Assembly (NCBI RefSeq): GCF_056712565.1
Contig: NZ_CM160072.1
DNA length: 64,000 nucleotides
Direction: 5' to 3' (one strand)
This document shows positions 3,001-6,000 of the stretch, one piece after another (positions within the stretch are counted from its first letter, which is position 1; every line of letters begins with the position of its first letter). Made by a program: the position numbers.

Positions 3001-6000
3001 GTTGCTCCCGGTAAGCGGCACGAACAACCAGCGTTGTGTGAATCATATTTCTGAACCGGATAACGAAATTCCGCCGGGCTTCAGGGGGTAAGTGTTAATT
3101 TCTGGTCATGAGGTAATTTTCAGGAGGGCTTGTGGCAAAAGTTTTTACACAAGAAGAGCGGGAAAAAATTAAAGGACAGGTTGTTGAACTCGTACGCCAG
3201 AGTGGGCGTGAGACGTTACGGCAACTGGAAGTCAAGACAGGTGCGACAAGATATCTGATGAGCGTTCTCGCAAGAGAGCTGGTTGCCAGCGGCGATGTAT
3301 GCAACTCTGGTTACGGGTTATTCCCGTCTGAACAGGCGCGTAAGGACTGGCAAAATGCCAGTAAAAAGCTCTCAAGGGCAAAGCTGAAGAAACCATCTGC
3401 GGTTGATCCGGACCTTATCTGGTCATTACCTGACGGAGAAATACGTCGCTACGACAGGCGTCAGAACATAATCTGTCGCGAGTGCCGGAAGAGTGAAGTT
3501 ATGCAGCGCATATTGTCGTTTTATCAGGGTGATGTTCGGTATTTATTGAAGTGACGAGATTAAAGTGCATTAGTTCAGATGCAAATTGACATTTTGTGGC
3601 ACAGGGTAGAGCTAGCGTGGTTGTCCGCTTTGTGCCAATAGCGGACATTGCTGGCTCATGGTATGTTAGTTTAAGGAGGCAGGTTATGCCCTGTATTTCG
3701 CTGTGGTATAATAGTTGCGCAATTGATACAAGGGAGCGTTACATCGTGAAAATTGTTTTCGAGGTTAATGGAAAGAAAGTTCCACTAAAATCTTTAAAAT
3801 ACATAAGCAAAAAAGATCAACTCGAAGTAATGAAAAACTGGTTCTTTGAAAACTTTGAAGATCCGGCAAATGCTTGTCCGTATGAAAGTAGAGAAGGTGG
3901 CTATGCTTACATATATGGCGGGCCGTATGATGCGAGCGAAGAACTACAATCCATCTTCGGTCAATATGTTAAATCTGAGTATATTGAGGAATTAGTAGAT
4001 GAATTACAAACACAATGTTTTGACTGGTCTGGAAACTCAAATAATATAGATGATTGGTACGATGATGATATCTACGACGCTGTAACGTCTTCCGGTAATC
4101 CGTATTTAAAATTCATTGATAATATCGATAAAATAAAAAAACTTGCAAAAGATAAAACTGAACAACAGCAAAAAAACCACTTGCTTAGTTTGCTCTACAC
4201 GAATGTTATTACAGCTTTGGAAACGCTTTATGTTGAGCTATTCATTAATTCTATAGAGAAAGATGATGTCTACATAGCCAATTGTATAGAAAAAGGTAAG
4301 ACTGAATTTAAAGTAAGCAAAGATATTGCTGCGTTGCCTTTCAAGGGTGAACCCATCGAGAAAATTAGGGGAGAGCTAATCAGGTCAATCAAGGAACACT
4401 TGATCAGTGCAAGCTGGCATAGCACTAAAAAGGTAATCGACCGCTATGAAGCTACATTCGATATAAAAGTACAAAAAGACTGTCCGATAGAAGCTATTGA
4501 ATTGGCAACCCTCAATCGAAATCACTTAGTGCATCGTGGTGGAAAGGATAAAGAAGGGAACCTCGTAGTGATTACAGACCAGGATCTTGAAACGCTGATT
4601 GAAAATGCATCGAACCTGGCAATTATGCTCTACAACAGTTTAAATGTAGCAACGAATAAAACCACCATTTTGCAACCAGATGACAAACCGTTCATTCATG
4701 AATTTTAATAGCGCAGGTCATACATGGATATTCGCACACGAAAGACAAAATTTTTAGAGTCGTTAGATTCAACTGAAGTGATACGCAAAGCAGTAAGTCT
4801 CGCTATAGATTGCATTATTGATAATCATAATAGTAATGAAGATACCCCCTTAGTTATTACCAGCTATGATGATCTCTGTAGAATCCAGGTGCTAAATTAT
4901 GTACAGGAGTTTTGCGAAGCTGCATTCCCTGATATGGATGAATATTACTTTAGTCCTAACATACTTCGCATCAACGGCAAGACTAGTGAAGAAGCTTGTA
5001 TTAACTTAATTAAACTCTTAAGAAGTACAAAAGGCATGCTATTCTGGTCCGATGCCCCATCGTGGTTCGCTAGCCTCCCCGACGGATTATTCCATGTTGT
5101 TAACATTGATCAAAAAATCGTTACTCGCGGCCTTAATAAGAAAAACTCTAAGCCGACAATAATCAATAAAGATTACAGTGTAGATACACTACTATCAGAG
5201 CTATTTTTGAATGGCGCACACATGGAGCAACCCAACGTACACAACGTTTCTGAGGGAAACATGAAGTTCTATGATGAATGCCATGCTGGATTAATCAGAC
5301 CAATACCCGCTCCAATAGGCGCGTCATACGATGAAGAGATCACAATTAATTCTCCAGATTGGCAAAAGCTCGCGTGTGTAGCTTTACGCCGCTATCAGTC
5401 GAAGGAATGTCATGACGGAATGCAATGGGATACAACCGATCATGGTTGGACTGATGTAATCGCGTATCCATTCGTCGAAGAAATACAATCAATGGATAAT
5501 AGTGGTTATCGACAATGTTTAGTTGGGCTGGTCACAATAAACAATTCAAATGCAAATTCTCCGTACCTATCTACCGTTTGGATACATCCATTTTATCGCA
5601 GGAGAGGGTTATTAAGTAAGTTATGGCCAAAATTACAAGAGTTATATGGAAGTAACTTCGAAATTGAGCGACCTAATGAAAATATGAAAGCATTTCTGAA
5701 AAGTGCGAAACACGCAGATTACTAATTTATGAATCAGTCTGTGGAGTTAGGGTTGGTGTCAACAAGTAGGGTAAGAGCCTCAACGTGATGCTATGCCGAC
5801 CTGCTCCCTGAGAATTCACACAGAAGGCTGCTAGCAATGTCTGCAGATCGCTCAAAGCGGACTAGAAGGTTAGCTTGCGTCGGACTTGGCGTATTTAAAG
5901 AAGTGCTGGTGGTGACTGGTTGTTGTGTTCCATTTCTACAGAACAAAATCACAGAAACTATACCCAATAGTTATATTGAATCAATGATGAGACAGCCTCA

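Follow-up and report, generated by a model that had tools for sequence, protein, structure and literature searches.

The two-gene cassette at positions 3650-5838 of the DNA analysed here is the anti-phage defence system DS-33, which is already published and is not a discovery of this work. The DNA is a stretch of 64,000 nucleotides from contig NZ_CM160072.1 of NCBI RefSeq assembly GCF_056712565.1 (hereafter, the window). The identification follows from the proteins and their arrangement: the first gene (gene A) shows 0 differences from DS-33A over 320 amino acids, the second (gene B) is identical to DS-33B (WP_000354965.1) at 332 of 333 residues, the sole difference being proline 289 here and leucine 289 in the published protein, and the genes have the same order and the same 15-bp spacing (7884 to 7900 in the published system, 4708 to 4724 in the window). 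Gene A is a stand-alone effector, and gene B is an optional passenger, paired with A in one recent clade only. Taken as a whole, the cassette is very probably best explained as horizontally acquired defence cargo in a prophage hotspot.

Identity and published activity of the cassette

DS-33, the "GNAT" transcription unit, was validated as a defence system in the DefensePredictor study (DeWeirdt et al., bioRxiv 10.1101/2025.01.08.631726; Science 2026, PMC13092281), whose supplementary tables list it as WP_014639476.1 plus WP_000354965.1 (PMC13092281). The main text of the paper and of the preprint does not discuss DS-33, and the accession match is found in the supplementary tables only; the study gives no account of how the system works, of its genomic surroundings and hotspot, or of B being facultative. 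A sequence-only reading of the window had put the cassette forward as an undescribed anti-phage module. The first half of that proposal fell with the preprint of January 2025 and the paper of 2026, and the second is borne out by the published protection conferred by an identical gene A. The recognition of an experimentally validated anti-phage system from raw sequence alone is a good check on reading of this kind.

Protection is reported in Table S7 of the DefensePredictor study as log10 values for two replicates in MG1655 (PMC13092281). Wild-type DS-33 gave 3.78/2.60 against T7, 3.30/2.40 against T3, 4/1.98 against Bas67, 5/5.90 against Bas26 and 0.77/0.08 against T5. Without gene B (ΔGNAT) the corresponding values were 4.78/4.30, 3.30/3.30, 4/3.30, 5/4.90 and 1.73/0.55, so that protection equalled or exceeded the wild type in nine of the ten comparisons. 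Loss of gene A (ΔHEPN) left all five phages between -0.48 and 0.54, and the point mutant R258A left them between -0.30 and 0.78 (PMC13092281). It has thus been shown by others that DS-33 protects against T7, T3, Bas67 and Bas26 by approximately 2-6 logs, and that this requires gene A and its residue R258, not gene B. The DefensePredictor log-odds are 9.45 for A and a low 1.08 for B (PMC13092281).

Both genes are + strand open reading frames, and the ATG of B follows the stop codon of A after 15 bp, as had been read from the sequence. The lower G+C content that had been estimated by hand count was confirmed by computation: the cassette has 38.6% G+C (gene A 36.1%, gene B 39.1%), against 48.7% in the left flank, 51.6% in the right flank and 51.2% in the whole window. 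Only two of 619 sliding 2189-bp segments were as low, and both overlap the cassette, which is the lowest 2.2 kb of the window. DNA alignment to prophages with other cargo placed the boundaries, with homology ending at approximately 3649-3651 and returning at 5839-5848. This G+C dip, together with the alternative cargo in other strains (see below), upholds the description of a foreign-composition operon in a variable prophage slot.

The cassette is 100% identical to that of the E. coli type strain ATCC 11775, where the two genes are annotated as hypothetical proteins (WP_014639476.1 and WP_000354966.1). The host element there is a Rac/Qin-type lambdoid prophage integrated beside ompW, in which the replication-region gene encoding DUF977 is followed by the cassette and then by hokD, DUF968, rusA and Q. 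Copies, nearly all at ≥99% identity, are carried by 208 of 5426 complete E. coli genomes (~4%). UTI89, IHE3034 and the type strain are among the carriers. With such a distribution, the system matters for which strains T7-like therapeutic phages can infect. The phage GenBank collection contains no copy of the cassette, its match being confined to the 90-bp left flank. PADLOC, NCBIfam and PHROGs supplied no functional name for A or B, returning two unnamed PHROGs and weak noise. In PADLOC-DB 2.0 (2023), which predates DS-33, the best match of gene A was a PglX fragment at E=0.01 and gene B had none. Profile searches of Protein Data Bank sequences with the A and B families gave no match.

Gene A encodes a HEPN/RES-NTD1 plus HEPN protein

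The protein encoded by gene A has an N-terminal HEPN/RES-NTD1 domain (NTD1) followed by a helical HEPN domain (Table 1). The helical domain has the four-helix up-and-down fold of HEPN proteins, with an Rx4-6H motif where the last long helix begins. The hexapeptide RNHLVH had been proposed as this HEPN Rx4H motif, and the proposal is sustained: R258, H263 and the following R264 are invariant in a 70-sequence alignment of A homologues spanning many phyla, and R258A abolishes the published defence. W224-H225, E159 and the GGP of NTD1 are also invariant in the alignment.

Pfam PF18870 matches residues 26-92 of gene A at E=2.2e-4, and among the 70 homologues it is found in 42 at E≤0.001 and in 66 at E≤0.1. 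Residues 21-95, the NTD1 core, form the most conserved segment of the protein, above even the catalytic region. This strong conservation, together with the fusion of NTD1 to RES, PIN and other effectors in relatives, suggests that NTD1 is a regulatory module that binds something conserved. PF18735 (RiboL-PSP-HEPN) gave no match to gene A of the window at E≤10; 28 of the 70 homologues match it at E≤0.001, the best at 1e-10, and UniRef labels the gene A protein as a RiboL-PSP-HEPN domain protein.

Anantharaman et al. (2013; PMC3710099) described the combination of HEPN/RES-NTD1 and HEPN and predicted computationally that it acts in the manner of Abi systems. Their HEPN/RES-NTD1 proteins with a HEPN domain of the MAE_18760/MAE_28990 type (Pfam PF18870 and PF18735) have the same domain architecture as A, as a prediction only. 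In Table S8 of the DefensePredictor study, A has a remote profile match (probability 96.1, coverage 0.55) to PD-T4-2_B, given there as a RiboL-PSP-HEPN protein (PMC13092281). Only the HEPN half of PD-T4-2 component B (Vassallo et al., 2022) matches A, PD-T4-2 is a different two-gene system, and the PADLOC scan of A gave no PD-T4-2 match at E≤1. Two further prophage-borne proteins, HepS of the Salmonella Gifsy-1 prophage (PMC13043305) and Tha of S. aureus prophages (PMC11087260), have no sequence similarity to A. HepS has 218 amino acids, is without NTD1 and senses a siphovirus tail-tip protein (PMC13043305), whereas DS-33 targets T7-like podoviruses and Bas26.

Gene B joins a family-specific N-domain to a GNAT-fold C-domain

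Gene B is a rare two-domain protein with a GNAT fold, for which acyltransferase activity is only predicted. Its predicted structure has a pLDDT (predicted local distance difference test score) of 90. The C-terminal domain has the alpha/beta fold of GNAT proteins, and its closest Foldseek relatives are small stand-alone GNATs of marine gammaproteobacteria and bacterial ESCO-type acetyltransferases. A resemblance to GNAT motif A, with non-canonical Gly/Ala positions, had been picked out from the sequence. H288, P289 (46 of 46 aligned family members) and R292 are invariant, and the motif itself is partly degenerate (R292-R-R-G295-L-L), with G295 common though not invariant and leucine at the last Gly/Ala position. 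The Pfam Acetyltransf_1 match is weak, at E=0.0022 for gene B and at E≤0.001 in 9 of 46 family members. The most conserved part of B is the presumed acceptor-binding arm (residues 191-243).

Across 55 family members, no Pfam profile matched the N-terminal alpha/beta domain. It is confined to the B family (22 clusters among 1.84 billion representative proteins), and the scan of these proteins found it in no other architecture or fusion. Assignment as a TIR domain was considered and not adopted, there being two weak leads only. GNAT toxins of type II toxin-antitoxin systems, such as TacT, AtaT and KacT, have approximately 170 amino acids and are paired with a small DNA-binding antitoxin. They have the GNAT fold and carriage on mobile elements in common with B, which differs in its 333 amino acids, its extra N-domain and the lack of such a partner.

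The residue at which gene B differs from the published protein bears on how the plaque data are read. The P289 allele is found on at least 1000 contigs and P289L on 31. Judged from its position in the predicted acetyl-CoA-binding loop of motif A, the P289L protein of the published construct is possibly impaired. This caveat is new here: the B that was assayed is the P289L form, not the consensus form carried by the window.

Gene A and gene B are a young and facultative pair

The distribution of relatives was surveyed in approximately 120 fetched loci (numbered with an L below), each of which was searched for both A and B. Adjacent A and B genes with the same 15-bp spacing and leader occur in three settings only, namely E. 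coli, Erwinia sp. (A 93% and B 89% identical) and Aeromonas caviae (A 86%, B 79%), where the pair lies in a relaxase/H-NS mobilisable island (L109-L111). In that island the cassette directly adjoins a SIR2 gene overlapping a cREC_REC gene, which looks like another defence-type pair. Pairing is thus limited to relatives with at least 86% identity in A and at least 79% in B, and all more distant loci are solo. Recurrence of homologues as a pair, which had been named as something to check, is seen in this one young clade alone.

Relatives of A with up to 76% identity are all solo (approximately 70 loci without B). They were found in Aeromonas taiwanensis, Yersinia, Dickeya and a second E. coli lineage, and in about 60 further loci from Proteobacteria, Planctomycetota, Cyanobacteria, Acidobacteriota and others. 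The contexts of solo A are mobile: it is carried on a small integrase/AlpA/Rep (satellite-like) element, in a P22-like phage and, next to a ParE pair, on an integrase island. Among 1099 flanking open reading frames, no neighbour family of A recurred beyond copies of the same element. The one-gene HEPN/RES-NTD1 effector family therefore spans many bacterial phyla, with no antitoxin holding A in check.

Gene A has also been lost repeatedly next to an intact B. Solo B loci at 86% identity were first candidates for independent B genes and were rejected as such, since DNA alignment identified them as cassettes in which A is deleted or truncated. In two viral contigs (L094 and L095) all that is left of A is its final 40-60 bp, which directly follow the leader (3623-3718 or 3625-3679), and in a Citrobacter/Enterobacter island A is reduced to codons 257-320. 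Two E. coli genomes are without the 5' half of A; in the one examined, the clinical isolate AHB12 (L122), IS1 abuts the break, the deletion runs from the exonuclease gene to the middle of A, and B is intact. A deletion derivative on nine contigs (P0148) has lost the DUF977 gene together with A and codons 1-132 of B; at L096 5638-6606 the N-terminal part of a DnaC-like replication protein (Walker A GKPGTGKNHLAAA) continues in frame into B residues 133-333. Loss of A beside an intact B under purifying selection has occurred on at least four separate occasions. The ratio of nonsynonymous to synonymous substitution (dN/dS) is 0.15-0.46 for gene B, 0.25-0.46 for B in the A-deleted L094 and L095, and 0.13-0.21 for gene A. 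The converse is seen in the clinical isolate SF-173 (L121), where A is intact and B is split by IS1 at codon ~187, leaving the N-domain of B. From the distribution of both genes and from these losses, the pairing is young and facultative, with no toxin-antitoxin dependency.

A type II toxin-antitoxin or addiction module, with A as toxin and B as antitoxin, is largely refuted by these data and is now very improbable. The genes are adjacent and lie beside the hok/sok toxin locus, and the repeated loss of A with B kept resembles the behaviour of orphan antitoxins. However, the ΔGNAT strain is viable and defends, and SF-173 has an intact A with a disrupted B (though the N-domain of B remains), which together indicate that B is not an antitoxin. 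Furthermore, nearly every lineage has A without B and without any recurring neighbour, and the gene order and sizes, including an "antitoxin" of 333 amino acids, are atypical.

The functional pairing of an RNase with an acyltransferase, as the sequence-only reading had it, is not supported either, given that defence without B is intact or higher and that both families are mostly solo. A real possibility, though one we place somewhat short of even, is that B is an independent accessory gene sharing an operon with A, either as a second defence or as an acetyltransferase acting on a host or phage molecule. Relatives of B with up to 75% identity are solo; one is on an integrative and conjugative element, and others lie close to a Mu-like prophage, SIR2_2 or an Abi_2 gene. 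In L094 and L095, where A is deleted, the leader with its putative promoter now adjoins an intact and selected B, and the presumed acceptor-binding arm is the part of B that is conserved best. Against this, the ΔHEPN constructs, which carry B(P289L) alone, gave no protection against five phages, the log-odds of B are far below those of A, B has no PADLOC match, and its motif A is degenerate. One solo B homologue (Marinomonas, L115 5038-5679, 51% identity) lies beside, and in divergent orientation to, a gene with a weak Pfam match to Abi_2, a HEPN family; this second GNAT-HEPN neighbourhood may be coincidental.

Proposed mechanism and the points against it

In the model that we favour, gene A is the working part of the system, as a single-polypeptide effector of the HEPN nuclease type with an N-terminal HEPN/RES-NTD1 domain. 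The HEPN superfamily is characterised by metal-independent RNase activity, which for A would follow from family membership only. The protein would be a latent RNase acting as a HEPN dimer or oligomer, and would be kept inactive without an antitoxin, probably through the highly conserved NTD1. Infection would switch A on, and the cutting of tRNA or mRNA would then stop translation, leading to abortive infection or growth arrest. B joined A in one recent lineage, and is an operon partner with its own selective value, outside the core defence mechanism. This latent-RNase model is inferred from HEPN biology and from analogy to HepS.

Several points weigh against this account. The dispensability of B holds only for a possibly crippled protein, because the construct tested has P289L, a change of an invariant residue. 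B or its mRNA may modulate A, as the ΔGNAT values suggest, and this effect could be either regulation or an expression artefact of the deletion. In the assays, DS-33 was carried on a plasmid in K-12 and not by the prophage of its natural host. For the nuclease activity of A, its RNA substrate, its trigger and the fate of the infected cell, the model draws on knowledge of the HEPN superfamily. In addition, the conservation of NTD1 is easier to reconcile with a ligand or host partner that is itself conserved than with the detection of phage proteins by a rapidly evolving sensor.

A rival reading is a true two-component system, in which consensus B would acetylate A, its target or its trigger and so tune the effector by damping it, widening its range or sparing the lytic cycle of the prophage. 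We consider this doubtful. The exact 15-bp spacing and the leader are kept across the E. coli prophage, Erwinia and the Aeromonas relaxase island, and the weak ribosome-binding site of B may mean that B is translationally coupled to A. Deletion of B raised protection against T7 by 1-1.7 logs, and against T5, T3 and Bas67 in some replicates, and the assayed B, with its P289L change, may not have been fully active. On the other side stand the distant relatives, in which A is never near B (up to 76% identity) and B is never near A (up to 75%), the at least four losses of A beside a B under purifying selection, and the possibility that the higher ΔGNAT protection is an expression artefact. The narrower claim, that consensus B (P289) is an active acetyltransferase tied to the HEPN effector, for example in damping A or in exempting the lytic cycle of the prophage, is a little less likely still. 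If it were true, the apparent dispensability of B would reflect the P289L construct, and the 10-50-fold higher T7 protection without B would be the first sign of negative regulation.

The prophage slot is a defence hotspot

The favoured reading of the cassette as acquired cargo is supported by what else occupies its position. The 90 bp to the left of the cassette are common to 989 E. coli genomes, and the contents of the slot differ between sampled genomes (loci L097, L098, L100 and L117-L120). They include PD-T7-1 (E=7e-157) with a 314-amino-acid protein (WP_001678528.1), HEC-06/DUF262 (E=4e-221), the FRG protein of PDC-S15 (E=7e-99), and a DUF4145 HEPN protein, weakly PD-T7-3-like, with two uncharacterised proteins. 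Elsewhere the slot holds a 269-amino-acid protein (WP_000161640.1) or is empty. The interval from DUF977 to hokD in Rac/Qin-type prophages is thus a defence hotspot. WP_000161640.1, WP_001678528.1 and a pair of 235 and 156 amino acids had no PADLOC match, and such PADLOC-negative occupants are cheap candidates for new defence systems. WP_023156363.1 and WP_000094483.1 are further occupants without annotation.

The context and the published phenotype refute an origin as ordinary nin-region genes serving lytic growth, which we regard as extremely improbable. The position is the one that such genes would have, on the early-rightward strand with the replication genes to one side and the Q antiterminator to the other. 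However, the slot is empty or filled with unrelated cargo in related prophages, the same cassette occurs in non-phage elements of Aeromonas and Citrobacter, its composition is foreign, and defence has been directly demonstrated in the published work.

The hok locus had been offered as part of the context of a toxin-type module. The locus is real, with sok at 6174-6348 (Rfam, 113 bits) and hokD at 6343-6498, and hok/sok is a fixed flank of the slot, outside the module. Beyond it lies a sub-threshold isrK-like match at 6507-6588 (27.8 bits against a gathering score of 50).

Table 1. Positions in the window of the cassette, its genes and domains, and associated sequence elements.
Feature	Position	Strand	Remark
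Whole cargo cassette (DS-33)	3650-5838	+	Variable slot, from DUF977 replication-region gene to hok/sok
Gene A = DS-33A (WP_014639476.1, 320 amino acids)	3746-4708	+	HEPN/RES-NTD1 plus HEPN nuclease-type effector
HEPN/RES-NTD1 core, residues 21-95 (WFxxNFEDP, YxYIYGGPY)	3806-4030	+	Pfam PF18870
HEPN helical domain, residues ~136-308	4151-4669	+	
Rx4H catalytic motif R258-N-H-L-V-H263	4517-4534	+	Alignment and published R258A
Gene B, DS-33B-type (WP_000354966.1, 333 amino acids)	4724-5725	+	Family-specific N-domain plus GNAT-fold C-domain; dispensable in tested defence
B N-terminal alpha/beta domain, residues 1 to ~150	4724-5173	+	No fold assignment
B C-terminal GNAT fold, residues ~191-333	5294-5722	+	
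GNAT motif-A region H288-P-F-Y-R-R-R-G295	5585-5608	+	P289 codon CCA, 5588-5590
Extended -10 promoter-like element TGGTATAAT	3704-3712	+	Read from sequence
Shine-Dalgarno AAGGGAG of gene A	3730-3736	+	9 nt 5' of GTG 3746
Imperfect hairpin GTCCGCTTTGTGCCAATAGCGGAC (GTCCGCT-N10-AGCGGAC, 24 nt)	3625-3648	.	Left junction
44-nt element 3' of B	5798-5841	.	Near right junction; recurrence across loci

Expression signals and start of gene A

The frame of gene A is open from 3596, and two starts, ATG 3686 and GTG 3746, had been left as alternatives. The ATG at 3686 was rejected, being ACG in Erwinia and lying outside the homology in Aeromonas. The GTG at 3746 is conserved in both and has AAGGGAG upstream. 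Because ATG 3686 is not conserved, homologues of A have approximately 313-320 amino acids, and both RefSeq and the published DS-33A give 320, the start of A is GTG 3746. Strong Shine-Dalgarno sites had been noted for the two genes; that of gene A is strong and is kept as AAGGAG in Erwinia and Aeromonas, whereas that of gene B is weak, with AGG only.

The extended -10 element TGGTATAAT is present as described and is kept as TG-n-TA-n-AAT in the Erwinia, Aeromonas and A-deleted L094 copies. A generic -35/-10 scan did not call it, and a consensus scan for promoters and terminators performed no better than on shuffled sequences. From its conservation, a role of TGGTATAAT as a promoter is plausible.

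Junction elements and a plasmid-labelled record

The imperfect hairpin at the left junction is kept in E. coli prophages regardless of cargo, and in Erwinia (L008), Serratia (L012) and the viral contigs L094 and L095 it is found together with the A-B cassette. Its fold is not significant (z = -1.55) and it has no Rfam match; it may be a recombination-junction mark. The 44-nt element near the right junction, likewise without an Rfam match or significant RNA structure, follows B in the Erwinia, Citrobacter/Enterobacter and viral loci, and also adjoins the unrelated PD-T7-1 cargo of strain F070 (L097 6197-6240).

One further copy of the host prophage was seen in a record labelled as a plasmid (pMS20655A, NZ_CP082081.1, 150 kb; L116), which carries ompW and the entire prophage in chromosomal order. 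Either the record is misassembled, or a large piece of the chromosome has been excised or duplicated.

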